Part shown: positions 2,826-63,994 of the stretch, piece after piece
Position numbering within the stretch: the first letter of the stretch is position 1
Layout: every line of letters begins with the position of its first letter
IMG/VR virus record: IMGVR_UViG_3300029240_000008
Direction: 5' to 3' (one strand)
Length of the DNA stretch: 64,000 nucleotides
DNA from: a virus
Position numbers and translations under genes: made by a program
Notes under the pieces: generated by a model
Databases searched by the model: none
Seen by the model: only the letters and a program-made list of their open reading frames with translations
What the model was told of the DNA's origin: nothing

Positions 2826-3066
2826 CAGCCCTCCTTATCTTCTGAGTCAGAATGTCAAATTCCATCAACATCCTGCGATCATTCTTGTTTGAGTATGCGA
2901 TTGTTTGCTGTCCATCATATATGACCGCATATCTTCCGTTAATGTCATATGCCCCGCTGATTGCCTGCGATATCTGACTTCTTGTCTTTCCTGTCAATTC
3001 TGATATTTCAGCAAGCGTCAGCTCCCCGATATATTTTGAACCGTCGTATACGTCATACAGTTTCAT
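2809..3066 (-). CDS. hypothetical small protein, possible HTH
   Basis: 85 aa. LTLAEISELTGKTRSQISQAISG looks like a helix-turn-helix. Confidence 0.5.
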   Translation of the reverse strand: MKLYDVYDGSKYIGELTLAEISELTGKTRSQISQAISGAYDINGRYAVIYDGQQTIAYSNKNDRRMLMEFDILTQKIRRAVGWEN

Positions 3067-3310
3067 GTTTCTTTACTCCTATCAGTTCGTATGTCCTGTG
3101 CGAACCAGTTCCGTAAAATACGATCAATCCATCGTCCTCAAACTGCCTTAGATGCCTTTGAACGGCTGTCATGCTAATTTCCAGTTCATCAGATATAATT
3201 CTTGTCGGCGGTGTGCCTTTATGCGATTTTGAGTATTTCAAAATAAAATAATAAATATCCCGGCGGTTCTGCTTCCATTCCATATGTTTCCGATGTCTAA
3301 AATTATCCAT
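3053..3310 (-). CDS. winged-helix DNA-binding protein
   Basis: 85 aa. ISDELEISMTAVQRHLRQFEDDGLIV is a MarR/ArsR-like wHTH pattern. Confidence 0.5.
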   Translation of the reverse strand: MDNFRHRKHMEWKQNRRDIYYFILKYSKSHKGTPPTRIISDELEISMTAVQRHLRQFEDDGLIVFYGTGSHRTYELIGVKKHETV

Positions 3311-3323
3311 TTTTACGATTCCT

Positions 3324-4157
3324 TTATAAAAAATCTTCTATGCTTATCTGACTGTTTTCCTCAAAAACAAGCATTTCTTCTTTTGCTCTCTTAAAGAAAT
3401 TTCTATCAATTTCAAAGCCGAAAGCATTTCTTCCTATTTCATGTGCAGCTCTTAACGTTGTCCCACTTCCGCAACATGGGTCTATTACTACATCTCCGGG
3501 ATCAGTAAACGTTTCAATCAATCTTTTTAAAAGTTTGACTGGCTTTTGTGCCGGATGAATTTTAGGAATATCTTTTCCATCTTTCTCCCAATCGAACCAG
3601 TTAAAAACCATGTGCCCTGTACCTCTGATTGTTTTTCCGTTTTCGTCAGTCTGAACGCCGTTCCTAAACTTAGGAAGCCTGTCTCTGTAAAACAATAATG
3701 CGTATTCCGTAGCTCCAACCACACGCATATTCGCCTTTAATACTTGAGGGCTGTAATTTTTTATGAAAACAAGCGGGATATAATGTACAAAACCATGTTT
3801 TTCAGCAGCTTTAATCAATGTTTGTGTTTGTTCAAACGAGCAAAATACAATCATGCATGGAGAATTGCTACTTCTTCCTCTTGGCACAGGTGTTGTATCT
3901 TCTTTTTTTAACATTCTTGAGCAAAAGTGAAAGTATTCATATAAGTTAAAATTAAAATCTGAATTAAAGGCAGCTTTTCCTGCTAGTTTACTTTCACCAT
4001 TTTTATTATCCCCCCCTACATACCACATAGGGTTGCTCCCGTAAAAATTATTTGCTACATTATACGGAACATCAGCTATAACAAGCTGTGCTCTTGGAAT
4101 TGCATATTTCTTGTAATTTTGCATTGAGTCTCTGTATATTTCGCATTTTAATTTCAT
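3324..4157 (-). CDS. orphan DNA methyltransferase, beta class (N6-A or N4-C)
   Basis: A catalytic (D/S)PPY-like motif IADVPYN lies near the N-terminus. The SAM-binding motif VIDPCCGSGTT lies near the C-terminus. This IV-then-I order is the beta class. No restriction partner is visible. Confidence 0.75.
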   Translation of the reverse strand: MKLKCEIYRDSMQNYKKYAIPRAQLVIADVPYNVANNFYGSNPMWYVGGDNKNGESKLAGKAAFNSDFNFNLYEYFHFCSRMLKKEDTTPVPRGRSSNSPCMIVFCSFEQTQTLIKAAEKHGFVHYIPLVFIKNYSPQVLKANMRVVGATEYALLFYRDRLPKFRNGVQTDENGKTIRGTGHMVFNWFDWEKDGKDIPKIHPAQKPVKLLKRLIETFTDPGDVVIDPCCGSGTTLRAAHEIGRNAFGFEIDRNFFKRAKEEMLVFEENSQISIEDFL

Positions 4158-5411: not shown

Positions 5412-5813
5412 TTAATCCTCCACAAATGGTGGTTTCTCATCCTCGAAGAAACTTTCGTAATCAAACCATTCATCTTTAATGAAATTTCCAATAATTTTCA
5501 CTGAATGTCCAAGCCCTTTCGTAGCAACTCTAACATGCTTTCCTTTCATTTCTATCAGGTCATCTACGCCAACAACGTCCATGATTCTCATAATCGCTTC
5601 AAGTCCTGCTTTTGAACCTTTAAAGTTTTCCGAGCCAAGGTAACCATGTCCTAAAACATATCCTCCGAATACAACGCCCCAGCCACCGCCAGAAAGAGCG
5701 AGGTCAAGGGTGAGTACTCCGTGATCTTTAAAATTCAATGATACATTTGTAATTTCAGCATTTCTTAATCTGTTTCCGTCGTTAATAAGTTCTTCTTCTG
5801 TCCAAATTTTCAT
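5412..5813 (-). CDS. hypothetical phage protein
   Basis: 133-aa ORF in operon context. Confidence 0.55.
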   Translation of the reverse strand: MKIWTEEELINDGNRLRNAEITNVSLNFKDHGVLTLDLALSGGGWGVVFGGYVLGHGYLGSENFKGSKAGLEAIMRIMDVVGVDDLIEMKGKHVRVATKGLGHSVKIIGNFIKDEWFDYESFFEDEKPPFVED

Positions 5814-11840: not shown

Positions 11841-12599
11841 TTACTCTTTATCTGCTTCTACAAATTCGCCGTTAATGAGTTTATAGAATGTATCTGGCTT
11901 AATCTTTTCACCGTCAACTTTTGCGCTTTTTACATCTACGATGTGGTATTCACCGCCCAGCTCTTTGCATTCTGCCAGTACAATAAAGCATCCAAGTGAA
12001 CCTTTAGCCTTAGAATTGTATCCAATGGCCATTGCGACGCTTTCTTTTCCTTCTACTGTTGCCGCTGACCAGTTTCCGGTGTTGGTTGCCGCTGACCAGT
12101 TTCCGGTGTTGGTTGCCGCTGACCTGTTTCCGGTGTTGGTTGCCGCTGACCTGTTTCCGGTGTTGGTTGCCGCTGACCAGTTTCCGGTGTTGGTTGCCGC
12201 TGACCAGTTTCCAGTGTTGGTTGCCGCTGACCAGTCTCCGGTGTTGGTTGCCGCTGACCTGTTTCCGGTGTTGGACTTTTTATCATCGTCCCAGTTAACC
12301 TGACCTTTGATGTACTCCAGACCGGCTTTAATAATTCCGGCAATTCCGATTTCTGCTTTAATCGAAATCTTCTTTCCTACTCTCTTGCTGTCGTCAGATT
12401 TCTGATCGTTTGCATCCAGCTCGACTTCGCAATATCTGGAATCAGCCGGTGCATAATATCCAAATACATCCAACGGATTCTCACAAGCATGAAATCCCGT
12501 ATCACAAATCTCGGCTCTTTCTTCTTCATACTTCTTTCCGATTTCATACTGAAAATCACGGCATTTTAAGTCTTTGTCAAATCCCTTATAGCATTTCAT
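11841..12599 (-). CDS. phage protein with SAATNTG(N/D)(W/R) nonapeptide repeats
   Basis: Start MKCYKGFDKDLKCRDFQYE at 12599 follows GGAGGACAAGG. There are 8 tandem nonapeptide units. I recall this N-terminal domain plus repeat type from hypothetical Firmicutes phage proteins. Confidence 0.65.
   Translation of the reverse strand: MKCYKGFDKDLKCRDFQYEIGKKYEEERAEICDTGFHACENPLDVFGYYAPADSRYCEVELDANDQKSDDSKRVGKKISIKAEIGIAGIIKAGLEYIKGQVNWDDDKKSNTGNRSAATNTGDWSAATNTGNWSAATNTGNWSAATNTGNRSAATNTGNRSAATNTGNWSAATNTGNWSAATVEGKESVAMAIGYNSKAKGSLGCFIVLAECKELGGEYHIVDVKSAKVDGEKIKPDTFYKLINGEFVEADKE
12058..12273 (-). repeat. 8 x 27-bp in-frame tandem repeat
   Basis: The plus-strand unit is gttgccgctgacc(a/t)gt(t/c)tcc(g/a)gtgttg. 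Copies are nearly identical and differ mainly at a TGG/AGG (W/R) codon. Confidence 0.95.
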
Positions 12600-12790
12600 T
12601 TTTCCTTGTCCTCCAAATTCAGTCCGAGTATAGCTGCACAAACCTCTTTCTTTAAATACGTATTTGCTTCGGTTGTGTTCAGGTACGCTTCAAATGCCTT
12701 TAATCTGCCTACCAGCTCTGCATACTCCTCGGCTACGGTCTCTGCTCTGAAATCCATCTTATTTTCTTTCTCCATCGCAATCCTCCTCAC
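12596..12790 (-). CDS. hypothetical phage protein
   Basis: 64-aa ORF with an ATGA overlap to the next gene. Confidence 0.5.
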   Translation of the reverse strand: MRRIAMEKENKMDFRAETVAEEYAELVGRLKAFEAYLNTTEANTYLKKEVCAAILGLNLEDKEK

Positions 12791-26202: not shown

Positions 26203-29200
26203 CTACCTTTCAAATAATCCGAATCCATTGCGGTTTCTGAACTGTTCGTTTTCCTCTTGCAAATATCCGACTAAGTGACCATCTGCATAAATTGCCATGC
26301 CTTTGACAGCTTCCCGGATAACCTGTGCGATATTCTGATTGTTGTCGAATGTGTTGTTACTGATTGCAATTACTTCACGGCGAATATCGTCACCAAAAGT
26401 ACCATTCGCAGATACCGGCTTCTGATACATTTTGGCAGTCGGAACAGCCTTTATATTTGCTTCCATTTGTGGGAGCTGAATACCCTGTATAGATGCGCTT
26501 ATATTTCCGATTGTAGACTGTAATGCCGGAATCATGTTCTGCATACCTATCTGAAAGCCCTGCATGGTGTAGCTACCAAGTTCTTCAAATACCTGAGATG
26601 GGCTGTGAATTTTGAGAACTTTGCGGAACGTATTTGATATATTTTGCGCGATTTTTTGCACATTTGCATAAAGCTGTTGTGCCGCGCCTACGATTCCATT
26701 GTTTAAGCCAATAATAGAGTTCCAACCGATATTATACAGGTTTCCAATGGAATTGCTGATTCTGCTTCGGATTCTTCCGAACCATGTGAACGACGCAGAA
26801 AAGCCCGGCTCTAATCCGTTTCGGAATCCTTGACCGCAGTATTCTGCAAGCTGCTTGAACCATCTGGACGGAGAGTGGGAGTCTACTGCTTCCTGCGCAG
26901 GGGCTTTTACGCTGTTATTCATTAGGTCAAGAATCGAAGTCTTTGTGCTTTCTTTCTTCCCGTTAATTCCAGACTGTAATCCCTCTGCAATGTTGCTTCC
27001 AAGGGTTTTACCGCTTGATTTCGCAGTTTCTTCTGCATCTTTTGCAGATGATTGAATTGTTGAGTTAAGCTTTTCAGTGACTTTGCTGCCGTTCTGCTCA
27101 ATCCCACTACCTACGGCAAGAATCTGATTCTTTCCGAGTTCCGTAACTAATTCAAAACCAGAATTGTTATCCAGAACGCCGTTGATTGCCCCCTGCAGAG
27201 TTGAATCCATTGTACTTTGTAGAGTACTTTCATAGTCAGAAATACCTTTTCCAAACTGCACCATCTGTCCGTTTGCTAAAGTATAGTAACCGTTATCATC
27301 CGGTTCTAATCCCTTTGCAATTTCCTGATAAATCTGCAATGCTTTTTCACCGAGAATCTGTTTTCCATTTTCCCAGATACCGCCCATCTCATCAATTGCG
27401 TTTGCCGTATCTGTTACCAGAGTTGCAAAGTCAACGGTCTGGATAAGTGTCTGGAATCCCGTAAGCTGTTCTGAGATATCCTCAAACGACACATTGTTAA
27501 TCCGATCAGCCATATTTGAAAACTGATTAGAGGATGTTTCCGCTGTATCTCCAAGGTCTTTGACTGGTTTGTTTACTCCTGCTATCGCATTCTCGAAATC
27601 TTCGGACGAAATTCCAAGATTATTAAGCTTAAGTTCAAGTTCAAATAACGCCTGTTCTGTGCTATATCCGTTATCTTTTAGCTCGGAAAGGAATGTTAAT
27701 AAAGGATATGCTTGTTCGCCTGAAATCTGGCTTGCGTGAACCAAACCGAGAATAGCATCTTCATACTCCTGAAATACCTTTAAATCGTCCTCTGTCAGTT
27801 TATCTCCGACTCCGAATATATCTTTCATCCATTCGTTGATAGCACCGGTAAAATCTCCTTTTTGATATCCGAATACATTATCTTCCAAAAACTCTCCAAA
27901 AGTTTTATCTTCGCCGCCGAACAGATTGACGCTTATCCATTTTCCAAGGTTGAAACCTGCCATTGCAGTTCCTAAGACAACCATACTGTCTGCGAATCCT
28001 GCTACAAGTGTAGAACCTAGTCCAGAGCCAAAGAATGTCTGCAATGCACCACTGGCTGTGGAAAGAACCGTTCCTAACCCACCGAAGATTGTTCTGAGTG
28101 CACCGATAGAGCTAACTACATTGTATATGTTTCGAGCAAAATTAATGCTCCCTCTTATAATAAAAAACCGTGCTAGAGCTTCGCCAAGAGCTTCTATCTG
28201 CTTATCGTCAAGCTTTCCTAAGGCTTTTGCGAAAGCATCTAAGGCGCTTACTAATGCGTTAATCAGAGGGGCGCCGATATCGTTCAGCATTATATCGAAA
28301 AAGCTGATAAACCCATCTGCGAATCCCTCGGCAAATGGCTGGAATACATCCCATACATCACCGATTGTTTTTATTAACGAATCCCAATTAATATTTTTGA
28401 TGAAATTCACAATTACGTCTTTAAGATTCCCGATTCTTGTCCATAACCCGTCCCAATCAACATCAATCACTCCAAATTTATCAAGTGCGGCAACAGTAAG
28501 ACCAAGTCCTGCCGCTATCGAAGCATATGGATGCGCTGCTAACATGGTGATTCCTTTGCCTATCACTCCTTCTTTACCGAAAATGCCACCGAACCATGTA
28601 AGTCCTTTAAATGCTACAAAAGCTGTCAGGAGCTGACCAAGGAAATAGCCGATAGATTGTGCCTGTTCTGGCGAAAATGTTGCGATAAACTCTTTGAACC
28701 TGTCAACCAGATCAGGAAGTTTATTAACTCCATCTGCCGCCTTGTCAAAAAAATCATCGAAGAAATCAAGTAATCCTGTTCCGACATTCTCAGCAAATGG
28801 CTCTAATACATCCCATAACTGTGCAAGGGAAGCATTGATTTTGTCCCAATTGATCTTTACAAGAAAATCATTGAAAGCATTAATTAATCGCGGTAATCCC
28901 TTTTCTCCTAATGTCCACTTTCCAAGTGGAACTAAAAAGTGTTTCCAGAAATCTTTTAATGCTGTCCATGTGAAATCTCTGAGTTGTTTCAATCCATTGT
29001 TCCAGAGATTTTTTAGTGCTTTTGTGGTAGGTTCTGCGACTTTTGCAAGTTTCTTAAATGTGTCTGTAACTTTATTTGCGAATGCCATAGCCTTATTTTC
29101 CATGGAATTGTAAGCGGCATCCCATTTCTTCTGGTATTCGTTCAAAAGTTTATCCAGTGCATCATTGAGGATTCCTGCGTCAATTGCAGATGTGTCAATT

Positions 29201-32154
29201 TTTGGCGCTTTAATTTTAGAATTTGCAAGGTCAGACAGAGAACTATCGTCTTTGCTCATAATTTCAAGTTCATCATAGGATGCGAGGAACTGTTTTAATT
29301 TTTTTGCGCTCTTAGTCGCATCTTTCAGATTGTTATTTGTATCTTTTGTAGCATCATCTACGTCCGAAATTCCAGAATCGTCTATGGAATCAAGTGCATT
29401 CGAGAGATTTTCACTTCCGCCACCGATAGAACCGAACATTTTTCCGATTTTGGTATCAACTCCAAGAAGCGAACCAATGTATGTCAAAAGTCTCTGGAAT
29501 GCGATTACAAGACCATTGATATATGGCAACACTGCCGCAACTACAGGCATAAAGATGTTCCCTAATGCTCTGGCACAGGATACTAAGTTTGCACGAAGTA
29601 TACGTAACTGGTTGGCTGGCATATTTATCGTATTTGCCATATCCGCCCATGCGTACCGGGTGGAATCCAGTATCACTATTGTTCTCAGCATTGCCTTGCT
29701 TGCTTGGTCCATATTAGAAACAGACGTTTGTATACCAAGATTTGCCGCATATTGCTGTAAGTTTGCCACACGAATGTTTGCACCATATTTGTCTACAGCA
29801 CGGCTCATACCTACTAATCCAGAGGACAAGTTCTCATAAACTGTGCTAAAATCAAGATTCTTAACAGATGCAAGGTCAGCACCGATCATGGTTAATGCAT
29901 TCGACAGTTTTAATGCCTGCTCAGAAGTCGTTCCCATAGATGATGATAACTGCGCAAACTGTCCTTGATAATTCAAGAGCATGGACGGATCCATACCGAG
30001 TGATTTACCTGATTTATTTGCGGTCAAAATCGCATTATCAGAAACATCGAACCCAGACATTTTGGATGTAAGTTCTCTAGCTCTATTACTAAATGAATTT
30101 GCGTAAGCTTCCGCAGAATCATACCCTGCTTCTGACCAAGTCTCTCCCGTTTTATCCGCTACCTGGCGGAATGCTGCTTGAAAGTAGTTGTAATCTTCGA
30201 GAAAATTCATGGAACTTTCAATTGCGCTTCCAAATTTTCCAACAACAAATTTCAACGTCCAGAATTTTGCCACCAGAGACATGATGCTAGGCAAACTTTT
30301 CTTTGCCTTGCTTCCTACACTTCCAACGGCGTTTGCAAGTTTTCTGACCTTTCCTGTAGAAGTACCCGCACCCTGTCCTAATCTGGAAAATGCGCCTGCG
30401 GTAGACCTTGCCGCTCTACCAGCATTTGCCCCAGAATTTGCCAACTGAGCAATGGCCTGCGTCATTTGAATTGTACTGCTACTGATTCTAGGAGCGGTAC
30501 TCATCGTCTGGAAGAATGATTTTAAGCTATTTGCCAGATCATTAAGCTGAGTTGCTGTCTTTCCAGTTTTATCACCTGCATTTGCCAACTGAGATATTGA
30601 CTGAACAAATGTATTAATTGGCTGAGAAATATTGCCTATTTCAGAGAATGAGCCTACGATTTTTTCAAGTTCTTCACCAAGTTTCGGGAGTTTTGATGTA
30701 ACTGCATCAATAGAACCACCGGCATTTGCCAATCTTGCCAGTGAAGAAACAAACCGGTTCACATTGTTTGATACGTCCGGAATACTGCTAAGACCAGATA
30801 ATTCGGAAATCATGTTCTGAATCTTTCCAGACACATCACCTGTGGAGTTTAATGTTTCGTTCAATCTACGGATAGAATTTACAAACGAATTTAATCCACT
30901 ATCTTTCAGATTAAGACTTCCAAGCGTGCTCATGGACTGAGTGAACTGCTGTAACTGGCTGTTTACTGTCGATAAATCCAGACCGTTCAATTTTGCTTCT
31001 ATATTGTTCTTGAGCTCATCCGTATTAATTGAAAGATTTACTTTTACCGGGTCATAGGTAAGCGTGGATGCCTTGTTGATGGCATTTCTAATATCTCTGG
31101 CAATCTTTTCTTCATTAATCTTTACGTCAATTGGAATCTGACCGTTTGCAGACTCCATGGCAGACGCAATGTTCCTCTGGATTGACGCACCGAGTTGCGT
31201 GCCTAACTCATTTACCGAGCTGTACACCCTGTCCGATGCCATTGCCGCATCTGAACCAGACAAAGCCTGAATTGATATTGGTTTGATGGAATCCCTGACT
31301 TTTTTAAGGTTTTCCAGAACGGTTATCAACTGATCTGCGTCGTTGATGGTATTCTTTGGAATCAATGTAGGGAACTTTTCTGATAGTTCTCCCCATGCTG
31401 AGTTAAGGTTAATTCCTTTTGTCGCATCAACTGTGATATTTCCAAGGTATTTCTGCAATAATTCCCTGAACTCGCCTTTTCCGATGTCTACTTTGAGCAT
31501 ATCGGAAACGTAGATTTTTTTGCCCTTGAAATAATTGTAAAAGTCCTGCCACTCTTGTTCTGCACCATCCAGATAACTTCCGAGATTGGATTTTACGACT
31601 TTCCCGCTCTGCTCAATGCTTTTTGCAATATCATCCAGAGTCTTTCCCCAGTCACCGGCTGTGAAGTTTTGTCCGTCAAATGAATTTGTAAGCTGTTGTG
31701 CCAACAAATCTATCTGTCTTTGAAGTTTGGAAGCGGCACCGCCTTTTAATTCAAATGCACTTGCAAGCTGTTTGGACAATGCAGATGCGTCTATTCTGGT
31801 AGTCTCTAAAGATTTCTCAACAGAATATTTCAATTTTTCGGACATATCCGCTGAATTAATCTCTACATTTACTTTGAGATTCTTGTTTTCAAGATTACTC
31901 AAATTCACTTTACTGAGACGTTCGAGCTGTGCGGCCATGCTATTCAACTTACTTGTATCAATACTTTTGATAGATTGCACAGCATAACTGAGAGTACCGA
32001 TAGATTTAGAAAAATTCCTCATCAAGCCTACGCTTTTGGACATTAAGCTGTCTAATCGGTCGAATTTATTGCACAAATCATTGATTGATCTTGACGCACT
32101 GGAAACGTCACTGCCGACTTGTATCGCCAGGGTATCAATCGTATTGTCAGCCAT
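26203..32154 (-). CDS. tail tape measure protein
   Basis: 1983 aa, the largest ORF in the window. It is helical and low-complexity with internal hydrophobic segments. It sits between the chaperone pair and the distal tail genes. Confidence 0.85.
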   Translation of the reverse strand: MADNTIDTLAIQVGSDVSSASRSINDLCNKFDRLDSLMSKSVGLMRNFSKSIGTLSYAVQSIKSIDTSKLNSMAAQLERLSKVNLSNLENKNLKVNVEINSADMSEKLKYSVEKSLETTRIDASALSKQLASAFELKGGAASKLQRQIDLLAQQLTNSFDGQNFTAGDWGKTLDDIAKSIEQSGKVVKSNLGSYLDGAEQEWQDFYNYFKGKKIYVSDMLKVDIGKGEFRELLQKYLGNITVDATKGINLNSAWGELSEKFPTLIPKNTINDADQLITVLENLKKVRDSIKPISIQALSGSDAAMASDRVYSSVNELGTQLGASIQRNIASAMESANGQIPIDVKINEEKIARDIRNAINKASTLTYDPVKVNLSINTDELKNNIEAKLNGLDLSTVNSQLQQFTQSMSTLGSLNLKDSGLNSFVNSIRRLNETLNSTGDVSGKIQNMISELSGLSSIPDVSNNVNRFVSSLARLANAGGSIDAVTSKLPKLGEELEKIVGSFSEIGNISQPINTFVQSISQLANAGDKTGKTATQLNDLANSLKSFFQTMSTAPRISSSTIQMTQAIAQLANSGANAGRAARSTAGAFSRLGQGAGTSTGKVRKLANAVGSVGSKAKKSLPSIMSLVAKFWTLKFVVGKFGSAIESSMNFLEDYNYFQAAFRQVADKTGETWSEAGYDSAEAYANSFSNRARELTSKMSGFDVSDNAILTANKSGKSLGMDPSMLLNYQGQFAQLSSSMGTTSEQALKLSNALTMIGADLASVKNLDFSTVYENLSSGLVGMSRAVDKYGANIRVANLQQYAANLGIQTSVSNMDQASKAMLRTIVILDSTRYAWADMANTINMPANQLRILRANLVSCARALGNIFMPVVAAVLPYINGLVIAFQRLLTYIGSLLGVDTKIGKMFGSIGGGSENLSNALDSIDDSGISDVDDATKDTNNNLKDATKSAKKLKQFLASYDELEIMSKDDSSLSDLANSKIKAPKIDTSAIDAGILNDALDKLLNEYQKKWDAAYNSMENKAMAFANKVTDTFKKLAKVAEPTTKALKNLWNNGLKQLRDFTWTALKDFWKHFLVPLGKWTLGEKGLPRLINAFNDFLVKINWDKINASLAQLWDVLEPFAENVGTGLLDFFDDFFDKAADGVNKLPDLVDRFKEFIATFSPEQAQSIGYFLGQLLTAFVAFKGLTWFGGIFGKEGVIGKGITMLAAHPYASIAAGLGLTVAALDKFGVIDVDWDGLWTRIGNLKDVIVNFIKNINWDSLIKTIGDVWDVFQPFAEGFADGFISFFDIMLNDIGAPLINALVSALDAFAKALGKLDDKQIEALGEALARFFIIRGSINFARNIYNVVSSIGALRTIFGGLGTVLSTASGALQTFFGSGLGSTLVAGFADSMVVLGTAMAGFNLGKWISVNLFGGEDKTFGEFLEDNVFGYQKGDFTGAINEWMKDIFGVGDKLTEDDLKVFQEYEDAILGLVHASQISGEQAYPLLTFLSELKDNGYSTEQALFELELKLNNLGISSEDFENAIAGVNKPVKDLGDTAETSSNQFSNMADRINNVSFEDISEQLTGFQTLIQTVDFATLVTDTANAIDEMGGIWENGKQILGEKALQIYQEIAKGLEPDDNGYYTLANGQMVQFGKGISDYESTLQSTMDSTLQGAINGVLDNNSGFELVTELGKNQILAVGSGIEQNGSKVTEKLNSTIQSSAKDAEETAKSSGKTLGSNIAEGLQSGINGKKESTKTSILDLMNNSVKAPAQEAVDSHSPSRWFKQLAEYCGQGFRNGLEPGFSASFTWFGRIRSRISNSIGNLYNIGWNSIIGLNNGIVGAAQQLYANVQKIAQNISNTFRKVLKIHSPSQVFEELGSYTMQGFQIGMQNMIPALQSTIGNISASIQGIQLPQMEANIKAVPTAKMYQKPVSANGTFGDDIRREVIAISNNTFDNNQNIAQVIREAVKGMAIYADGHLVGYLQEENEQFRNRNGFGLFER

Positions 32155-34554: not shown

Positions 34555-35079
34555 TGATGCAAACACTTCTTTTGCAATTTTCCTAATACTCTGCATGATT
34601 TTCACGCTTGCCTTATATACCGGCATAGTGGCTTCGGTACCATAAGAGCGTACCCATTCGCCAGAATCGGCAAAATAAACCCACGATTCATTCTTTCCGT
34701 TTCCTTGCCCGTATGAACCGATTGTATATCCAAATTCTTGCCCTTTGGGATGTAGACTGGTTCCTGCAGGAGTGTTATACGAAATACCCGCTCCGAACTC
34801 AATGAATAAAAGGTCAGAGCCTTCGCACACAAGTGTTGCCTGAGAATAGCCACCAAAGTTATTGATTCTGATATAGGTATTATGATTTTTGTCAGAATCG
34901 CCTTGTGCCAATGCTATGTTTTCATCTATGACCGGGATTCCAAGTTCTGCCAGCCTGCGGACAAACTCTTCATTCTTGCTTGCAAGTGACTTCTGGTACG
35001 CTCTGAGCTGCTTTATTGTGTCCTGTATAGATTTATGCGACAATTCCATTTTGATAGTCTTATTCGCCATCTGAGCCAT
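34552..35079 (-). CDS. head-tail region structural protein
   Basis: 175-aa ORF overlapping the upstream gene. The call is positional; an HK97 gp10-like role is possible. Confidence 0.5.
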   Translation of the reverse strand: MAQMANKTIKMELSHKSIQDTIKQLRAYQKSLASKNEEFVRRLAELGIPVIDENIALAQGDSDKNHNTYIRINNFGGYSQATLVCEGSDLLFIEFGAGISYNTPAGTSLHPKGQEFGYTIGSYGQGNGKNESWVYFADSGEWVRSYGTEATMPVYKASVKIMQSIRKIAKEVFAS

Positions 35080-41483: not shown

Positions 41484-41907
41484 TAATTGCCCCCTTTCTG
41501 GCAGCCTGTGTAACAGGTGTGTCTGTCGTTGGGGCTGTACCATTAATTGCTGTTAAATTGTTACTCGGACTACAAGCTGGATTTCCCAACATCTTGAATA
41601 CTCCGCCAGTTGCACTTGTAGCTACTCTGGTTGCGTATTTCGTTCTGGTTCTTATTCCGCAAGCCGTAACCTGTGCACAGCAACGATTCTCTAGCGGATA
41701 CAAAGTTGTTCCTGTTCCTATTTGAATCATTACCGGGGCGGTAATTGTGGTGGCTTCTGGTATACTTTGTGCGATCACAATGCAATACTTTTCTCCATTG
41801 GAATAACTGCCTGCCGGGAGTGTGATTACAAGATTGCCACCGGTAAACGATACAGACTGGCTGATTACAAGATGGCTGCAAAGCTTACAAACATTTTTAC
41901 AACTCAT
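41476..41907 (-). CDS. Cys-rich hypothetical protein
   Basis: 143 aa starting MSCKNVCKLCSHLVISQSVSFTGGNLVITLPAGSY. It has 9 Cys and a T/A-rich tail. Confidence 0.5.
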   Translation of the reverse strand: MSCKNVCKLCSHLVISQSVSFTGGNLVITLPAGSYSNGEKYCIVIAQSIPEATTITAPVMIQIGTGTTLYPLENRCCAQVTACGIRTRTKYATRVATSATGGVFKMLGNPACSPSNNLTAINGTAPTTDTPVTQAARKGAINA

Positions 41908-55737: not shown

Positions 55738-55809
55738 TCGGAAAGGCAGGAATCGAACCTGCGGCACATAGCTTACAATGCCATTGCTCTACCACTGAGC
55801 TACATTCCG
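55738..55809 (-). tRNA. tRNA-Thr (anticodon UGU)
   Basis: Hand-folded cloverleaf. The acceptor CGGAATG/CTTTCCG has one mismatch. The D arm is GCTC-AGTGGTA-GAGC. The anticodon arm is ATGGC-ATTGTAA-GCTAT. The T arm is GCAGG-TTCGATT-CCTGC. Confidence 0.85.
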
Positions 55810-56100
55810 TACCGCCTATAACGGCCAGTTCTCTGAAAAGAAACTGGGTTGATTCCCACATCACATGCTTTCGGACCGGATGAAAATATCCAGATAAGCA
55901 TTAACCTTTCCATCGTAAAACACATGAACTAGATGGTTCTTTTAGAATTGCCGACTATCACTTCTCACGGCCCGTGGTCTCATCTCTCTAAAAAGTTTTT
56001 TACGCAAACGCCTAGTGAGTTGTACGTTTACGCTCATGCGTAAATCCACCTGAGACATAGACCGCCTGTATACAAACAGCTTAACTCTAAGCGGATTAAA

Positions 56101-56169
56101 GCGGAACGCCCGGAATCGAACCGGAGACCAGAGCGCGACTCTGTCAGTTTGCCACTAGCGTACATTCCA
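56101..56169 (-). ncRNA. degenerate tRNA-like element
   Basis: The acceptor (TGGAATG/CGTTCCG with GU pairs) and the T arm (TCCGG-TTCGATT-CCGGG) fold. The 35-nt middle cannot form canonical D and anticodon arms and is 4 nt too short. Confidence 0.4.
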
Positions 56170-56545
56170 CATAACCCGGAAACCCCGGGTTAGCAATATG
56201 TTTATCGTGTTATGCTTTCCACTAGGCAATTTCCTGCAACTTGGACTATCGTATTTTTGCCAACCTGACGGCTTTTTGGTAACCGTGGTATGCTCCACGG
56301 AGTTGTTTCGAAATTGGATATTTACGTCTTTATAGACAACGACAAAACCTTTTGATGTCTCTTAAAAACTTCCTGTCCTCAACGTGCACCTATTGACGAC
56401 AATTTAACTCAGAGACTGTGCCGAACGGGGAATTATCTTCATCGAACAGGCTGTGCCGTTACACACCTTTCATAAAAATAATCCACATACACTCATTCAG
56501 CAGTTTTTTCTGTCCATAAAACGGATAGACAGCATATGGAAGAAA

Positions 56546-56618
56546 TGGAAACTACAGGACTCGAACCTGTGACTTGTCGGTTATGAGCCGACCGTTCTGC
56601 CAACTGAACTAAGTTTCC
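56546..56618 (-). tRNA. tRNA-Met or tRNA-Ile2 (anticodon CAU)
   Basis: Perfect cloverleaf. The acceptor is GGAAACT/AGTTTCC. The D arm is GTTC-AGTTGGCA-GAAC. The anticodon arm is GTCGG-CTCATAA-CCGAC. The T arm is ACAGG-TTCGAGT-CCTGT. Confidence 0.9.
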
Positions 56619-56820
56619 TGAGCAGAGGGCTATTGCAGTTCAAGAGTAACTTCCTCTGCTGTTGCGATTCTTGCCCTCGCAGTCGCAACAAAGGGTCTAA
56701 ATGCTGTTCTGCATAAGCAGAGTCCAACCGGGGCGTTTGAAGCCCCTTTAATCATCCCCGTTGGGATAGATGGAACCAATTCGGAGGGGAACTATATCAT
56801 GGCTAAACAATATAGTCCGA

Positions 56821-56892
56821 CTGGGCTAGCGGGATTCGAACCCGCGAATACAGCAGTCAAAGTGCTGTTCCTTACCGCTTGGAGATAGCCCA
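56821..56892 (-). tRNA. tRNA-Gln (anticodon UUG)
   Basis: U1-A72 acceptor TGGGCTA/TAGCCCA. The D region ATCTCCAAGCGGTAAGGAA is typical of tRNA-Gln. The anticodon arm is CAGCA-CTTTGAC-TGCTG. The T arm is GCGGG-TTCGAAT-CCCGC. Confidence 0.9.
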
Positions 56893-60227: not shown

Positions 60228-60407
60228 CAGTCTATTTAATTTTATTTTTACCGTTACATTACTCTTATTAACTCTATATATCTATACGGTACTGTATAGT
60301 ATGTATATTAATAAACTCTAGGTCTTTAGAATCTTGGAGGGGATTATAAATACAGTTATTATATATTTATACATCTTGTAATACGGTCATTTTCCGGCAT
60401 ATATCGC

Positions 60408-60517
60408 ACAAAAAGCCAGACCTTCCGGCACCTTGTCCGGCGTGATCTGGCCTGCTAAATTCTTATTCTTTTCGCGCTCTGGCTACCGCTCCCCTCCTGA
60501 GTTCCGTCGCCTGTCGT
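60408..60517 (-). ncRNA. candidate sRNA 2 (GC-rich, own promoter and terminator)
   Basis: On the minus strand: TTGATT (60548..60553), a 17-nt spacer, TAAAAT (60525..60530). About 110 nt follow without a start codon. The terminator is GCCAGA..TCTGGC plus TTTTTG (60409..60451). Confidence 0.45.
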
Positions 60518-60612
60518 TGATTTTATTTTATCCACATCTTTTTTAAAAATCAAGTCCCAAAATAAAAAAATTTTTGCTTGACAACTTCGACAGTTTTATG
60601 ATAAATGTATTT

Positions 60613-60708
60613 TAACAACTTCGGCGGCGGGGTTGTTCCCCCGCACTTATTACGCCGCCAGAATAAGAAAACAAAAGCCCCCGGGATTATCTCTCAGGGG
60701 CTTATTTT
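60613..60708 (+). ncRNA. candidate sRNA 1 (repeat-like GC hairpin + A-rich tail + terminator)
   Basis: TTGACA (60578..60583) followed by TGATAAAT. A 7-bp stem GGCGGCG/CGCCGCC spans 60623..60659. The tail AGAATAAGAAAAC follows. The terminator is AGCCCC..GGGGCT plus TATTTT. Confidence 0.5.
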
Positions 60709-60810
60709 GCGTCTTTCCAAAATGGAAATATTAAAATTTGCACTTATTCAGTACTATTTCAAGTTTACATTCAATTACCTCAGTAATTGTTGTCTAAATA
60801 ATACTATAGA

Positions 60811-61500
60811 TCAGATGAAAAAACAAGGATTGTTTAAATTATCACAATCTGTAATTACTTTCATTCCTCGATCTAAATATTTCACGCGAACATCATTAAA
60901 TCTTCGCTTTCGCTTATCAATTACATAGTCTTTGTGAATTGTGTAAACAGTTCCGGGTGTTTCTACCGTAGCCGGTGTATAAATGCACATATCAAGCGTC
61001 ATTTCTTGTGCTGGCAAAACGTTAACAACCTGCACTCCGTCAATTCTTATCAAGTCCTCATGTCGTCCCAGGCTTGGGAATGTCCGCGGGTTCAGAATCT
61101 TTCTACAAATCACATCAACTTCTTTCTGATTTTCCGGCATAACATGCAATCTCAGGTCCAGATCAGACACCACGCTTTCATAAATCGGTGTATTAACCCA
61201 GCCCACAAACGAATCCCCAGATTTTACCCTGACTGGAAAACGCTGCTTAAATTCCTCCGTTTCTGATCCTGCGACAGCTCCGCCGCGCCACCTCATACAG
61301 ATTTCCGGCTTATTTATGACTCCATTGCCGGATACGGACATCTTCATATCATGCCAACTGTCCCACCTGCAAAGAAAATGAACCATCCCAGCAACTGTAG
61401 AAAAAGGCGGAAGCGGGTACGTTTCGCCCCGCTTGCCGTTCCATCCCGGTATTGAAAACCGGGCGGTATCCATATGCCCTTGTATCATTACTGCTTTCAT
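60811..61500 (-). CDS. cas5: solitary Cas5-like RAMP protein (resembles subtype I-B Cas5)
   Basis: MKAVMIQGHMDTARFSIP......GETYPLPPFSTVAGMVHFLC follows the Cas5 N-terminal signature: a beta strand, then A.F, then tYP.PP.ST..G. KMSVSGNG and FPSLGRHEDLIRI resemble later Cas5 blocks. The product is 229 aa. Motif recall only, with no HMM run. Confidence 0.55.
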   Translation of the reverse strand: MKAVMIQGHMDTARFSIPGWNGKRGETYPLPPFSTVAGMVHFLCRWDSWHDMKMSVSGNGVINKPEICMRWRGGAVAGSETEEFKQRFPVRVKSGDSFVGWVNTPIYESVVSDLDLRLHVMPENQKEVDVICRKILNPRTFPSLGRHEDLIRIDGVQVVNVLPAQEMTLDMCIYTPATVETPGTVYTIHKDYVIDKRKRRFNDVRVKYLDRGMKVITDCDNLNNPCFFI

Positions 61501-61697
61501 GCGTTCATTTCCTTGTCTGCTCGGAATCCTTCAAGAATATCGTCATACAGACTTTCGGGTATTTCTTCCTCCATCAGTGGCTTTCTTTCTTCAAGTTCTG
61601 AGTCGAGGCTTGCATCGATGTCTGCAAGCGCCTGTTCTCTGTTGAATCCCATTTCTACAGCTGCATTCAATAAGTCAATTGTTTTCTTCATTTTCAT
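61497..61697 (-). CDS. small acidic protein
   Basis: 66 aa and D/E-rich. It has an ATGA overlap with the cas5-like gene. Confidence 0.55.
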   Translation of the reverse strand: MKMKKTIDLLNAAVEMGFNREQALADIDASLDSELEERKPLMEEEIPESLYDDILEGFRADKEMNA

Positions 61698-62136
61698 TTT
61701 CCTCCCTTATCTGTTCTTCATATTTTTTTATGAGCCATTCCGGGACCGGTTCGTCTCCGTCCTCGCCATTGTATTTGATCGGGTCAATGTTGTTCGTGAA
61801 ACACCATTCCCAGCTGTTATAATCGTCGCCGTCTTTTGACACGATGTAAAATATATCGTATTCGCTGTCCACAAATGCCATTGTATCTGTTGCGTTCATC
61901 GTATATAACATGATATACATGTTTCTCCTGTATGCGTACGCCATTTCTAGCGGAGAATCTTCGCCACTCAGAAATCCCATAAACATTTTAACGTCGTATG
62001 AATCTTTCGATAATTTGTTATAATAATCGTAGACTTTTTCATCCCATCCGTCCGGGAAAAGTTTACGATTTTTTATTTCCTCGTTATCTTCTTTAGCCAT
62101 TTTGTAAATGGTTTCAAGTTTTACTCTCTTAATCAT
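61675..62136 (-). CDS. acidic hypothetical protein
   Basis: 153 aa with the C-terminus EEQIREENENEENN. Confidence 0.55.
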   Translation of the reverse strand: MIKRVKLETIYKMAKEDNEEIKNRKLFPDGWDEKVYDYYNKLSKDSYDVKMFMGFLSGEDSPLEMAYAYRRNMYIMLYTMNATDTMAFVDSEYDIFYIVSKDGDDYNSWEWCFTNNIDPIKYNGEDGDEPVPEWLIKKYEEQIREENENEENN

Positions 62137-62260: not shown

Positions 62261-62683
62261 TTAAAGCATTATATAGGACTCTCCGTCTCCGTCATACTCG
62301 TTAGCTGCCTCTTCTGCCTCTTCCAGGCTGGAATAAACACCAATTGTTTCATAACTTGGTGTTTCGACAACTTCGATTTTCATTGGAGTTGTCTCTAACG
62401 TGTCTATAAAGCCCGTCTGCACGAACTCGTTTTCGTCCTCGTCAAACTCGAACTCATTTTCCTCAATCGCATACTCCTCAACTGAGTAAAACGTCATATT
62501 GTGATTTTCAAACTTGCTGACGCTTGTCTTGCGTTTTGCAAGTTCCTTTTTAGCCTCTTCCAGATCGTCAAACGTTTTTATGTATTCGGGATCCGGATCC
62601 AAAGCTGTACATCCTTCTTTAATCTCCTTTCTATTTTGGCGGTTAAATTCTGCCGTTCTTTTCACCAAATCATATTTTATCAT
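62261..62683 (-). CDS. acidic hypothetical protein
   Basis: GAGGAGGAATAGGAAC SD and an ATG at 62683 (MIKYDLVKR). The product is very D/E-rich. Confidence 0.55.
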   Translation of the reverse strand: MIKYDLVKRTAEFNRQNRKEIKEGCTALDPDPEYIKTFDDLEEAKKELAKRKTSVSKFENHNMTFYSVEEYAIEENEFEFDEDENEFVQTGFIDTLETTPMKIEVVETPSYETIGVYSSLEEAEEAANEYDGDGESYIML

Positions 62684-62687
62684 GTTC

Positions 62688-62864
62688 CTATTCCTCCTCT
62701 TCCATATCAAGCCAAATTTCACACTGTTCGCCGTCCTCCTCGTAGCTGACAACCTCGCCAGCTTCCAGGCGTTCCCGCCAGTCTTCCGGGTAGTTTTCCG
62801 GGATGTAAATACAGTTTCCCGGAAAGAACTGGTTGTTGCGTTTCTCATTAACTAAATATTCCAT
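62688..62864 (-). CDS. 58-aa acidic protein (below the ORF-track cutoff)
   Basis: TAAGGAGGGCAAA SD and an ATG at 62864. The product is MEYLVNEKRNNQFFPGNCIYIPENYPEDWRERLEAGEVVSYEEDGEQCEIWLDMEEEE. Confidence 0.5.
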   Translation of the reverse strand: MEYLVNEKRNNQFFPGNCIYIPENYPEDWRERLEAGEVVSYEEDGEQCEIWLDMEEEE

Positions 62865-62899
62865 TTTGCCCTCCTTACGTCCTCTGCTTTACATTGTTT

Positions 62900-63130
62900 T
62901 TAATCAATCCCGGTAACCTTAACCCGGGCCTGTAAAATGTCCTCCGCAGATTCCAGAGCCTCGAAATCCACGATATACTCCTCACCATCCTGATATACGG
63001 CGATTGCTCCAGACTCTAACAGCTCTTCGCCGTCTCCGTTTCCATCCCAGAGCTGGCCGAAGAAATATTCTTTACCGGCTTCAATTGTATCCTCTGTTCC
63101 GAGGATATATGCCAATGTGTTTAATTTCAT
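62900..63130 (-). CDS. small acidic protein
   Basis: 76 aa containing GDGEELLESGAIAVYQDGEEYIVDFEALESAEDIL. Confidence 0.55.
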   Translation of the reverse strand: MKLNTLAYILGTEDTIEAGKEYFFGQLWDGNGDGEELLESGAIAVYQDGEEYIVDFEALESAEDILQARVKVTGID

Positions 63131-63222: not shown

Positions 63223-63696
63223 TTACCTGCAATTATTTGCTATTTTTACATCATAGCAATAATGTTTTCCGTATTTTTCAAAATATGCGTCTTTTAAATT
63301 CTCATCTGTCCCAAGCTCGAACGCTATATCATTGCAAATATATGCTGCAATATCAAGAGTATTTTTATAATATCCAACATCATTTTTGTTATATAACTTA
63401 AAACCAGCTTTTGCCAATGTGAACATGTAAATTTTTTCGCAAAAATCCAATTTACTTTTTGCAACTTCTTCGTTGTAAAATTTGTGAAGCACTAGAAAAG
63501 TAAATTCGTCTTCTTTGTCTTCATTAATTTCTTTTACGTTATGAGTGCCGTTTTGAATCCCTGTTTTATGTTGTAATGCTCTCTTTTTAATATTCGTGCT
63601 TTGCCCAACATACGCCATCATTTTTGTTCTGTTGACAACTGCATATATTCCAGCCTTATTATATTGTGGAATATAAAATTTTTCTAAGTTTGCCAT
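63223..63696 (-). CDS. GIY-YIG domain nuclease
   Basis: AGIYAVVNRTKMMAYVGQSTNIKKRALQH matches GIY..YVG..R. It is followed by FCEKIYMFTLAKAGFKLYNKN. Confidence 0.6.
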   Translation of the reverse strand: MANLEKFYIPQYNKAGIYAVVNRTKMMAYVGQSTNIKKRALQHKTGIQNGTHNVKEINEDKEDEFTFLVLHKFYNEEVAKSKLDFCEKIYMFTLAKAGFKLYNKNDVGYYKNTLDIAAYICNDIAFELGTDENLKDAYFEKYGKHYCYDVKIANNCR

Positions 63697-63772: not shown

Positions 63773-63994
63773 TTATTTACTTTTATATTCCATAATGTCA
63801 GCTGGTTGACAATTCAATAATTTGCATAATGAACAAATAACTTCACAAGTTACATTTTCATTCTTTGTTAGCTTCGCCACTGTATTAGAATGCAAACCAT
63901 TGTTCTTTAACCACTGTTTATTAAGTTCTTTCTTTTTTAATACGTTCCATAGCTTAGAAAAGTCAATATATCCATTCTTTCCATAATCGGCCAT
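63773..63994 (-). CDS. XRE-family HTH protein
   Basis: LHSNTVAKLTKNENVTCEVICSLCKLLNCQPADIMEY is an HTH_26-like pattern. Confidence 0.6.
   Translation of the reverse strand: MADYGKNGYIDFSKLWNVLKKKELNKQWLKNNGLHSNTVAKLTKNENVTCEVICSLCKLLNCQPADIMEYKSK

Follow-up and report, generated by a model that had tools for sequence, protein, structure and literature searches.

The virus of IMG/VR record IMGVR_UViG_3300029240_000008, a temperate siphophage, was analyzed over a stretch of 64,000 nucleotides (hereafter, the window). On its minus strand lies a gene for a homolog of Cas5, a protein of type I CRISPR–Cas systems (CRISPR: short palindromic repeats, clustered and regularly interspaced), and directly after this gene comes an element that resembles the gene of a CRISPR RNA (crRNA). 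We call the protein vCas5. The locus is composed of the following features.

60811–61500, minus strand: gene of vCas5, a viral Cas5b homolog of 229 amino acids with an ATG start, assigned from profiles, an AlphaFold2 model searched with Foldseek, more than 90 solitary phage copies, the ratio of nonsynonymous to synonymous substitution rates (dN/dS), and 79 of 79 intact open reading frames (ORFs).
60798–60826, minus strand: weak promoter-like site, TTGTTT-17-TATTAT, read from the sequence and overlapping the 3' end of cas5.
About 60789–60667, minus strand: crRNA-like RNA, two pieces of the host I-B repeat around a 26-nt pseudo-spacer.
60772–60789, minus strand: surrogate hairpin CAATTAC-TGAG-GTAATTG, which replaces the 5' part of the first pseudo-repeat and whose closing C-G abuts the handle.
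60763–60771, minus strand: AATGTAAAC, the 3' end of the host I-B repeat and source of the 8-nt crRNA 5' handle ATGTAAAC.
60737–60762, minus strand: pseudo-spacer TTGAAATAGTACTGAATAAGTGCAAA, 26 nt, the first 16 of which are those of the host CreR pseudo-spacer.
60716–60736, minus strand: second pseudo-repeat TTTTAATATTTCCATTTTGGA, the 5' 21–22 nt of the I-B repeat (crRNA 3' handle), with a degenerate 3' end.
60667–60715, minus strand: tail and intrinsic terminator (AAGCCCC..GGGGGCTTTTGTTTTC), placed by the fold of 60664–60797.

An earlier reading of the bare sequence (hereafter, the original prediction) gave the ORF, its length, and its N-terminus correctly: the minus-strand translation of 60811–61500 begins MKAVMIQGHMDTARFSIPGW, and the plus-strand translation contains many stops. 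It also took the product for a Cas5 of the subtype I-B type, and profile searches agree, with matches to the PADLOC Cas5b profile PDLC02094 (E = 6.2e-21) and to TIGR01895, which covers Cas5b/Cas5t (E = 3.7e-19, likewise significant). The scores remain under the curated cut-offs of TIGR01895 (69.2 vs. 96.7 bits), PF09704 (18.4 vs. 23), and TIGR02593 (16.4 vs. 17.8), and no PHROG family matches the protein. By profile, vCas5 is a divergent homolog, not an equivalog, and is closest to Cas5b. In an alignment, the blocks ETYPLPP-ST-G--H and SLGR-ED- are invariant across viral relatives and cellular Cas5b, and the vCas5 motifs ETYPLPPFST-GM-H and SLGRHEDL are also found in cellular Cas5b; an RW-GG...ETEEFK-RFPV insertion and several C-terminal deletions are specific to the viral clade. 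An AlphaFold2 model, computed from an alignment of relatives and cellular Cas5b, has a predicted local distance difference test score of 90.2 and a predicted template modeling (TM) score of 0.82. When it was searched with Foldseek, a check that had been proposed at the outset, the first PDB matches were Cas5 chains of I-E, I-B, I-C, and I-A Cascades (top chains 5u0a_N, 4tvx_H, 8fcj_A, 8ip0_A, and 8g9s_N; E about 1e-7, probability 1.0, TM 0.5–0.6), and the predicted fold is that of a Cas5 repeat-associated mysterious protein.

All 79 complete vCas5 copies in IMG/VR are intact, with 229 or 230 amino acids, and the gene is under purifying selection, as both of two clades have a median dN/dS of 0.14; we take vCas5 to be a working protein. 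The scores under the curated family cut-offs could be read as a sign that the gene is left over from a captured cas operon and is decaying without a function, but we give that explanation almost no credence. The low dN/dS, the uniformly intact copies, the confident fold, and a position conserved in phages with only 47–58 per cent identity in this protein all contradict it, and the selection data refute it as far as sequence analysis allows.

The gene is as solitary as had been claimed. With the host Cas6, Cas8b, Cas7, Cas5, and Cas3 proteins as tblastn queries against the 64-kb window, the vCas5 gene was the sole match; it is the only Cas homolog in the window and lies outside any cas operon with cas7 and cas8. 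A complete cas operon just beyond the window would make it part of an ordinary CRISPR–Cas locus. On a 73.5-kb contig with a 99 per cent identical vCas5 homolog (L001), however, the 10 kb on either side of cas5 hold replication, integrase, terminase, and portal genes and no cas genes, and we therefore conclude that no such operon is hidden there. The accompanying claim that the window has no CRISPR array stands for canonical arrays, none of which was found in the window by Tandem Repeats Finder, and fails for the 'repeat-like sRNA' noticed downstream of cas5, which is a degenerate mini-array.

Metagenomic relatives of vCas5 are 227–231 amino acids long and 47–99 per cent identical to the window protein, whereas cellular Cas5b reaches only 35 per cent or less. 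They include at least 80 further copies in IMG/VR, and they form a clade apart from cellular Cas5, on mobile elements outside CRISPR–Cas loci. In every family context examined, a solitary cas5 lies in a siphophage or prophage, after a helix-turn-helix (HTH) gene and small ORFs, and no cas neighbors were seen beside cas5 in more than 90 related loci. Signs of a temperate lifestyle in the family are the integrase in L001 and prophage ends in the four contigs L007–10.

Alignment of the downstream gap (570–920 bp) across loci revealed the conserved element directly after the cas5 stop. It begins with a variable hairpin closed by C-G and continues with AATGTAAA(N), a brief variable segment, and (T)TAATAGnnnCATnnTGGA, after which come a degenerate tail and a terminator. 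All 80 of the 80 vCas5 loci in IMG/VR carry the RNA at a fixed offset, and in all 80 the handle motif keeps that offset. Because both conserved blocks resembled the ends of one clostridial-type I-B repeat, we predicted that the joined repeat, CATTnTGGAATGTAAA, would occur in real arrays, and a metagenome scan with it retrieved arrays of up to 108 copies with a period of 64–68 bp. The repeat of these arrays is GTATTAATAGAAACATTGTGGAATGTAAAT and close variants, and the host repeat consensus is GTATTAATAGAAACAT(T/C)GTGGAATGTAAA(T/G). The arrays adjoin cas6b-cas8b-cas7b-cas5b-cas3b, and the named genomes among them are of gut Lachnospiraceae. Judged by these repeats, the viral RNA contains the components of a mature I-B crRNA: the handle on the 5' side, then a guide, here a short one, and on the 3' side a piece of repeat. 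Its downstream repeat, unlike that of a normal crRNA, is without a handle. Lone full repeats in genomes of Blautia and other Lachnospiraceae were also considered as prophage elements and rejected as array remnants or array ends.

The region 60664–60797 folds with a minimum free energy of −36.1 kcal/mol (z = −4.5), and no Rfam family matches the RNA region. There is no terminator between cas5 and the RNA, and the −35 box of the promoter-like site at 60798–60826 is weak, which together make co-transcription of the RNA with cas5 plausible. A consensus promoter scan makes no call at that site; clade B relatives have a consensus TTGACA-17-TATTAT at the matching position. Across 47 distinct viral units, pseudo-spacers measure 16–31 nt, as against 34–38 nt for host spacers, and some relatives carry two RNA units in tandem. 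In one natural deletion variant (L458, about 2200–2420), a small ORF continues directly into what is left of pseudo-spacer 1; the deletion took cas5 along with the first hairpin-handle and spared the second RNA unit.

The surrogate hairpin is present in 87 of 88 loci in which the RNA lies 3' of cas5, and it has at least seven different stem sequences, with pairing kept across loci. Where the RNA lies 3' of cas5, the 5' part of the first repeat, which Cas6 recognizes, has given way to a stable hairpin that stops precisely at the handle, and the internal units of two-unit arrays bear the hairpin as well. One explanation of this arrangement is that vCas5 matures or stabilizes the RNA, either by cutting the hairpin base in the manner of Cas5d to yield the 5' handle or by capping and protecting the handle, so that host Cas6 would be unneeded at the 5' end. 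Cas5d structures (4f3m, 3vzi) are among the fold matches of the vCas5 model, and PMC10651486 cites Cas5d as a processing enzyme. We consider a maturation role improbable, nevertheless: no catalytic residues can be assigned in vCas5, its invariant residues are common to the non-catalytic Cas5b, the position of Cas5d Tyr46 is, to judge from the alignment, a Cys, and two groups of Cas5-linked RNAs (clade 3 and the clade of L006, described below) are without the hairpin.

The survey of the host for a type I-B system, which had been suggested as a further check, identified a Blautia wexlerae-lineage strain whose I-B system, by its spacers, targets this phage. Eight contigs with an exact cas6 of the type at host locus L083 (L466–L473) carry a full cas6-cas8b-cas7-cas5-cas3-cas4-cas1-cas2 operon and an array. 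The array of L466 includes six spacers against the window, three of them perfect, and all six protospacers have a CCN protospacer-adjacent motif (PAM).

Window 63633–63666: spacer match 34/34.
Window 41544–41577: spacer match 34/34.
Window 2957–2991: spacer match 35/35.
Window 29786–29822: spacer match 36/37.
Window 27513–27548: spacer match 34/36.
Window 34856–34890: spacer match 32/35.

Among 26 genuine protospacers across the phage family, 24 have a 5'-CCN PAM, which is CCA in 18 cases. The chromosomal flank of L466 is 97–98.6 per cent identical to Blautia wexlerae MSK.20.46, spacers of the isolates Ruminococcus sp. AM36-2AA and AF41-9 also match the window, and in relatives some host spacers match the viral cas5 gene itself. 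The reference strain MSK.20.46 (L152, about 2593) has one lone repeat at the chromosomal site where L466-type strains (L466, 7156–9877) carry a CreR gene, the I-B operon, and the array; it looks as if this strain lost the entire I-B locus by recombination between repeat-like sequences.

The viral pseudo-spacers match single-copy crRNA-like genes at the host I-B loci L083, L059, L045, L044, L084, and L095. These genes lie divergently upstream of cas6 in five distinct loci and in eight of eight further L083-type contigs (the L083 copy is at about 5440–5560). Each is framed by a promoter and a terminator of its own and comprises a pseudo-spacer of 24–30 nt between two degenerate repeats, and each pseudo-spacer has a CCA-flanked target between the gene itself and cas6, at or next to the −35 box. 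At four of five loci (L083, L045, L084, and L095), pairing extends over 17–18 nt, with mismatches there only at positions 6, 12, and 18, and then collapses; at L044 it is weaker, with 12 of 15 effective pairs and additional mismatches. Type I Cascade flips out the bases at positions 6, 12, and 18, leaving them unpaired. From these features, we infer that the Blautia/Lachnospiraceae genes are CreR-type elements, an in silico assignment that would imply guide-RNA autoregulation of CRISPR in abundant human gut commensals.

The first 16 nt of the window pseudo-spacer are identical (16/16) to those of the L083/L466-type host CreR. Its target, CCA followed by TTGAAATAGTATTGAA, lies in the host cas6 promoter, and the sole mismatch in 16 nt falls at the flipped position 12. 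The CreR gene and a CCA-TTGAAATAGTAnTGAA target are present in eight of eight L083-type contigs. Only two CCN-flanked sites in the host DNA compared form at least 13 of 15 effective pairs with the window pseudo-spacer, and each lies at a cas6 promoter. Seed runs measure 16 nt for the window against the L083 target and 18 nt for relatives (L214a against L045; L224b and L002a against L084). The pseudo-spacers of clade 3, L006, L201, L011, and the Cas5-less families had no target in the few host promoters compared, a result that says little. By this evidence, the host that targets the phage is the host whose regulatory guide the phage copied.

Viral mimics of host Cas-regulating RNAs have been described as Cracrs. 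The window RNA has two degenerate repeats around a pseudo-spacer and is encoded on a mobile element outside a CRISPR–Cas locus. The criterion of the preprint is at least nine PAM-proximal nucleotides in common with host CreR/CreA (10.1101/2024.10.29.618823), and the window RNA has 16 of 16; it is also partially complementary to a cas promoter beside a functional PAM. Because its guide copies CreR and matches the CCA-flanked cas6 promoter site, the window RNA is, by sequence, a Cracr.

Viral mini-arrays have also been discussed (PMC10651486, PMC11656645) in connection with inter-viral conflict, and the phage is temperate, as the integrase in L001 and the prophage ends in L007–10 attest. With its guide and Cas5, a prophage might turn host Cascade on rival phages or strengthen it against them, as a means of superinfection exclusion. 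We regard this as very improbable: in the phage sequences compared, the loci gathered for this analysis, the viral pseudo-spacers have no protospacer above chance, they are conserved within phage clades and too short, and they match the host cas promoter and CreR instead.

How closely cas5 and the RNA are associated was assessed from the opposite direction, by a reverse scan of IMG/VR with a pattern of the RNA architecture, which returned 114 loci.

cas5 directly upstream of the RNA and on its strand: 88 loci.
A different cas5 clade (clade 3) immediately downstream of the RNA: 9 loci.
No cas5 within 1.5 kb of the RNA: 6 loci.
Deletion derivative without cas5 and first handle (L458): 1 locus.
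Chance matches in coding DNA: 4 loci.
Flanks too short to judge: 6 loci.

About 93 per cent of the assessable RNA elements in IMG/VR are thus Cas5-linked, in at least two viral Cas5 lineages. A reading by which Cas5-linked RNAs have the hairpin and Cas5-less RNAs a repeat-type first half was dropped, as nine of the supposedly Cas5-less loci have cas5 just downstream.

Those nine loci make up clade 3 (L447, 7480–8340; also L345, L360, L376, L396, L434, L439, L444, and L407), whose Cas5 has 234 amino acids and is ~30 per cent identical to both the window protein and host Cas5. The crRNA-like gene lies upstream of cas5 there and has its own TTGACA-17-TATAAT promoter and a terminator; the pseudo-spacer of L447 is ATTTACTTAAATCATATAAT, for which no target was found among the few host promoters compared. 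The clade of L006 is the most distant one that still carries the RNA. A gene of L006 that overlaps the cas5 start (1488–1952) encodes a protein of 154 amino acids whose N-terminus scores above the Pfam AcrIC5 threshold (29.3 vs. 27 bits). AcrIC5 is an inhibitor of type I-C. In the P0034 clade of vCas5 (L007–10), no adjacent RNA was seen.

Farther afield, the cultured Fusobacterium phage vB_FnuS_FNU4 (L464, OQ808964.1) has a solitary full-length Cas5b of 355 amino acids (427 bits) at 1831–2898 and, beside it at 3015–3144, three repeat-like copies with a CTAAT-TAGT-ATACAT core and a period of 51–55 nt, which probably read from the opposite strand as ATTTTTAATGTATCACTAGATTAGAATTTAAA. The FNU4 publication gives only cas5 hits by hidden Markov model; the mini-array goes unmentioned there (PMC12632247). 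The Listeria plasmid pLM33 (L465, NC_014255.1) has a solitary annotated cas5 at 3001–3723 (240 amino acids) in a small-gene operon followed by an AP2-domain gene, and about 44 Listeria plasmids carry such a solitary annotated cas5. The pLM33 protein, 42 per cent identical to Listeria Cas5 and 25 per cent to vCas5 of the window, probably belongs to the AcrIB3 family. No crRNA-like RNA was found within 3 kb of the pLM33 gene; a CATATGTAAAT pair on the plasmid was considered as a crRNA-like gene and rejected as a palindromic operator-like site. In a protein search with Listeria Cas5, the matches listed (at least 54 per cent identity, of 1,700) are true Cas5b. 'Listeria phage LM 4-11-1' and 'LM 4-14-1' (OR846720.1 = L014 and OR848150.1; UNVERIFIED_ORG), the only phage-database matches to vCas5, were rejected as AcrIB3 carriers: they contain a complete Listeria I-B operon and array and are host DNA, at least in part.

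Taken together, the sequence evidence makes it very likely that the cas5–RNA module is an anti-CRISPR against the host I-B system. Our preferred reading, to which we assign a probability of roughly 45–50 per cent, is that vCas5 and the adjacent RNA are the two parts of one anti-CRISPR module and that vCas5 acts as a partner that takes the Cas5 slot on the viral RNA. The possibility that vCas5 might be a partner for the adjacent RNA, mentioned in the original prediction, has proved its most fruitful idea. Cas5 is the handle-binding subunit of Cascade, and it is this property, together with the recurrent close linkage of cas5 and RNA across gene orders, that leads us to the partner reading.

Under this reading, the viral RNA would be loaded onto host Cas7, Cas8b, and Cas6, and vCas5 would occupy the Cas5 position on it by binding the ATGTAAAC handle, which would put the viral guide first in line for assembly and might provide a 5' end that does not depend on Cas6. 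Pairing of ~16–18 nt at the cas6 promoter should suffice for Cascade binding and be too little for cutting by Cas3. Once loaded, the RNA would make repression of the entire cas operon stronger and divert Cas proteins from immune crRNAs, which is the Cracr mechanism, and the hybrid complex would repress but give no defense. The steps that we infer here are expression and loading of the RNA, repression of cas transcription, and binding of vCas5 to both the RNA and host subunits. More tentative still, with a chance somewhat short of even, is the general form of the idea: that viral Cas5s are dedicated subunits for viral guides and that a hybrid virus–host Cascade silences the cas operon and cannot defend.

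Several observations weigh against a partnership. The surrogate hairpin tracks the position of the RNA 3' of cas5, not Cas5 as such, and may therefore reflect only co-transcription and processing; the first pseudo-repeat of clade 3 is of the repeat type, and the L006 clade also has no hairpin. Each part can exist alone, as there are at least four families of similar viral RNAs without a nearby cas5, and the P0034 vCas5 clade and the Listeria plasmid Cas5 have no adjacent RNA. With just 25–32 per cent identity between vCas5 and host Cas5b, assembly with host Cas7 and Cas8b is not assured. The handle of the viral RNA is the same as that of host crRNA, and the sequence gives no sign of a preference of vCas5 for the viral RNA. 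Finally, AcrIB3 works without an RNA partner and blocks DNA binding (10.1101/2023.06.24.545427), and a vCas5 that acted in the same way would conflict with a guide that needs DNA binding.

In an alternative reading, vCas5 is a stand-alone poison subunit of the AcrIB3 type that replaces Cas5 in host Cascade and blocks recognition of target DNA, and the RNA is an independent, co-encoded Cracr. The latter would keep the cas operon repressed against the de-repression that an anti-CRISPR (Acr) causes, and would itself escape vCas5, for example by its short guide or its 5' hairpin. There is precedent in AcrIB3, a Cas5 homolog that co-purifies with Cas6 and blocks CRISPRi, and a logic of synergy between an Acr and a Cracr, with short spacers sparing the Cracr complex, has been published (10.1101/2024.10.29.618823). 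The phage pseudo-spacers are indeed short (16–31 nt vs. 34–38 nt), and the RNA-less vCas5 clades and Listeria plasmid Cas5 would be accounted for. We nevertheless hold two independent inhibitors to be possible but rather unlikely. About 93 per cent of the RNAs are linked to a cas5 that lies tens of bases away, this holds for two or more Cas5 lineages that differ in gene order, and FNU4 has a comparable pair, which is a closer association than they would lead one to expect. If a Cas5 mimic blocked DNA binding, it would put complexes on the viral RNA out of action as well, because both RNAs carry the same handle. In addition, vCas5 is only 25 per cent identical to the likely AcrIB3-family protein.

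If vCas5 and the RNA do work together, as in the partner reading, the pair would show how a phage can outcompete the dozens of crRNAs made by its host when Cascade is assembled, and how it escapes the surge in Cas proteins that follows the action of ordinary anti-CRISPRs where a system regulates itself. Should the hybrid complex exist, vCas5 would be the first structural subunit of Cascade from a virus to form a repressor complex and not merely break the complex of the host. The pairing is seen repeatedly, in two or more Cas5 lineages of Lachnospiraceae phages, and a Fusobacterium phage has a similar one. Catalogued orphan viral cas5 genes, including those of Fusobacterium phages considered for therapy, merit re-examination for RNA partners. 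With the host lineage, its I-B locus, six spacers, the PAM, the host guide, and the promoter target all identified, the hypothesis is directly testable.

The genes upstream of cas5 are those of an anti-defense-type locus, as the original prediction had it: an HTH_26 gene first, then small acidic ORFs, with the AcrIC5-like gene of L006 in the corresponding neighborhood of a relative.

61497–61697, minus strand: acidic ORF of 66 amino acids, isoelectric point (pI) 4.2, whose stop overlaps the cas5 start (ATGA); no family match.
61675–62136, minus strand: acidic ORF of 153 amino acids, pI 4.35, net charge −16; no family match, and unlike the AcrIC5-like neighbor in L006.
62261–63130, minus strand: further small acidic ORFs, at 62900–63130 (76 amino acids, pI 4.05), 62688–62864 (58 amino acids), and 62261–62848.
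63223–63696, minus strand: GIY-YIG endonuclease gene, between the HTH gene and the acidic ORFs (Pfam GIY-YIG, 7e-8).
63773–63994, minus strand: HTH_26 (Cro/C1-type) gene, the first of the operon (Pfam, 1.8e-11).

The ATGA overlap with a chain of small acidic proteins had thus been read correctly; the ORFs upstream of cas5 have pI values of 4.05–4.35 and net charges of −10 to −16. Searches against Pfam, PHROG, and PADLOC assigned these acidic neighbors to no family, save that the ORF at 62261–62848, the start of which is uncertain, has a weak DUF7336 match, and none of them resembles the AcrIC5-like protein of L006. The HTH_26 gene occupies an equal position in L001, L002–4, L006, and L011–13 and is a candidate Aca-like regulator. 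The GIY-YIG gene, which holds the perfect protospacer at 63633–63666 (34/34, CCA PAM), is found in some relatives (L005, L458) and missing from others, a patchiness that fits a mobile homing element, and is probably a mobile insertion.

Downstream of the crRNA-like RNA, on the minus strand, lie a GC-rich hairpin (GGCGGCG...CGCCGCC, about 60659–60623) and a candidate small RNA within 60405–60660, with a promoter-like site at 60553–60525, the conserved core GGAACTCAGGAGGGG, and a terminator at 60429–60415 plus a T run. Both are kept in relatives with only 58 per cent identical Cas5, and neither has an Rfam match. Elsewhere in the window, a perfect 27-nt tandem repeat in eight copies (GTTGCCGCTGACCAGTTTCCGGTGTTG) at 12058–12274 is in frame with the minus-strand ORF 11841–12641, which would give a 9-residue protein repeat, and three tRNA genes, Thr-TGT, Met-CAT, and Gln-TTG lie on the minus strand at 55738–56892.

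The locus joins two recent ideas about anti-CRISPRs, viral copies of Cas proteins and viral copies of host regulatory guides, and both have been published: Cas5-homolog anti-CRISPRs of viruses and a catalog of orphan viral cas5 genes on the one hand, and Racr, CreR, and Cracr RNAs on the other. The original prediction erred, therefore, in supposing that nothing of the kind had been described. AcrIB3 and a catalog of 358 orphan viral cas genes by Katz et al. are on record (10.1101/2023.06.24.545427), and Table S3 of the latter lists L387 (IMGVR_UViG_3300006168_000014), a member of the wider vCas5 family; six contigs of the window's own vCas5 clade are not in that catalog. We found no report of a solitary viral Cas5 paired with a crRNA-like RNA in the literature searched, which did not extend to the tables of the Cracr preprint, where the RNA may be listed.

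AcrIB3 is a Cas5 homolog on Listeria mobile elements that co-purifies with Cascade and blocks recognition of target DNA (10.1101/2023.06.24.545427). Like it, vCas5 is a solitary Cas5b homolog on a mobile element, with about one-third identity to host Cas5, a clade of its own, a small-gene operon, and a host with a I-B system. It differs in that it is only 25 per cent identical to the probable family member on pLM33, which points to a separate lineage (the comparison is with pLM33, not with the AcrIB3 sequence itself), and in that the window family has the RNA in every copy examined, whereas the Listeria gene has none within 3 kb. With Cas5d of type I-C, vCas5 shares the Cas5 fold and a hairpin directly before the crRNA handle on which such a protein might act; it is closest to Cas5b by profile, however, and catalytic residues cannot be shown.

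Among regulatory and inhibitory RNAs, the RacrIC1–AcrIC5 bicistron (Camara-Wilpert et al., Nature 2023, PMC10651486) is similar in that a viral RNA that mimics a repeat is encoded with an anti-CRISPR protein, possibly on one transcript. RacrIF1, however, lacks the 5' handle and so excludes Cas5f and Cas8f (PMC10651486), whereas the window RNA keeps both handle and guide. Its handle is conserved, and it has a guide and part of a second repeat; it falls outside the definition of a Racr or solitary repeat unit and resembles a complete crRNA. CreR/CreA guides are designed to bind a promoter without licensing Cas3 (10.1101/2023.03.10.532045), and the host elements described here are likewise degenerate mini-CRISPRs that lie beside a cas operon and are complementary to the cas promoter in part, on the PAM-proximal side. 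They are genes of the host, not of the phage, and the Blautia/Lachnospiraceae examples, assigned in silico, lie divergently upstream of cas6.

A further parallel is with the Cracrs of Liu et al. (10.1101/2024.10.29.618823), who report short spacers, genetic linkage to a protein Acr, as in the AcrIF24–CracrIF pairing, and experimentally shown repression of cas genes for V-A and I-E, with I-F Cracrs acting on the creT toxin promoter. The window RNA agrees with that account in being a viral crRNA-like RNA with two degenerate repeats, a short pseudo-spacer that copies a CreR/CreA guide, a cas promoter match beside a PAM, two-unit stacking in some relatives, and genetic linkage to a protein anti-CRISPR. 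It departs from it in subtype and host, being of subtype I-B in gut Lachnospiraceae (the preprint does list I-B candidates), and in the hairpin that replaces the first pseudo-repeat. It departs from it also in its partner: Cas5 does not appear in the main text of the preprint, and the protein linked to the RNA here is not an unrelated Acr but a homolog of the Cascade subunit that binds the crRNA handle.

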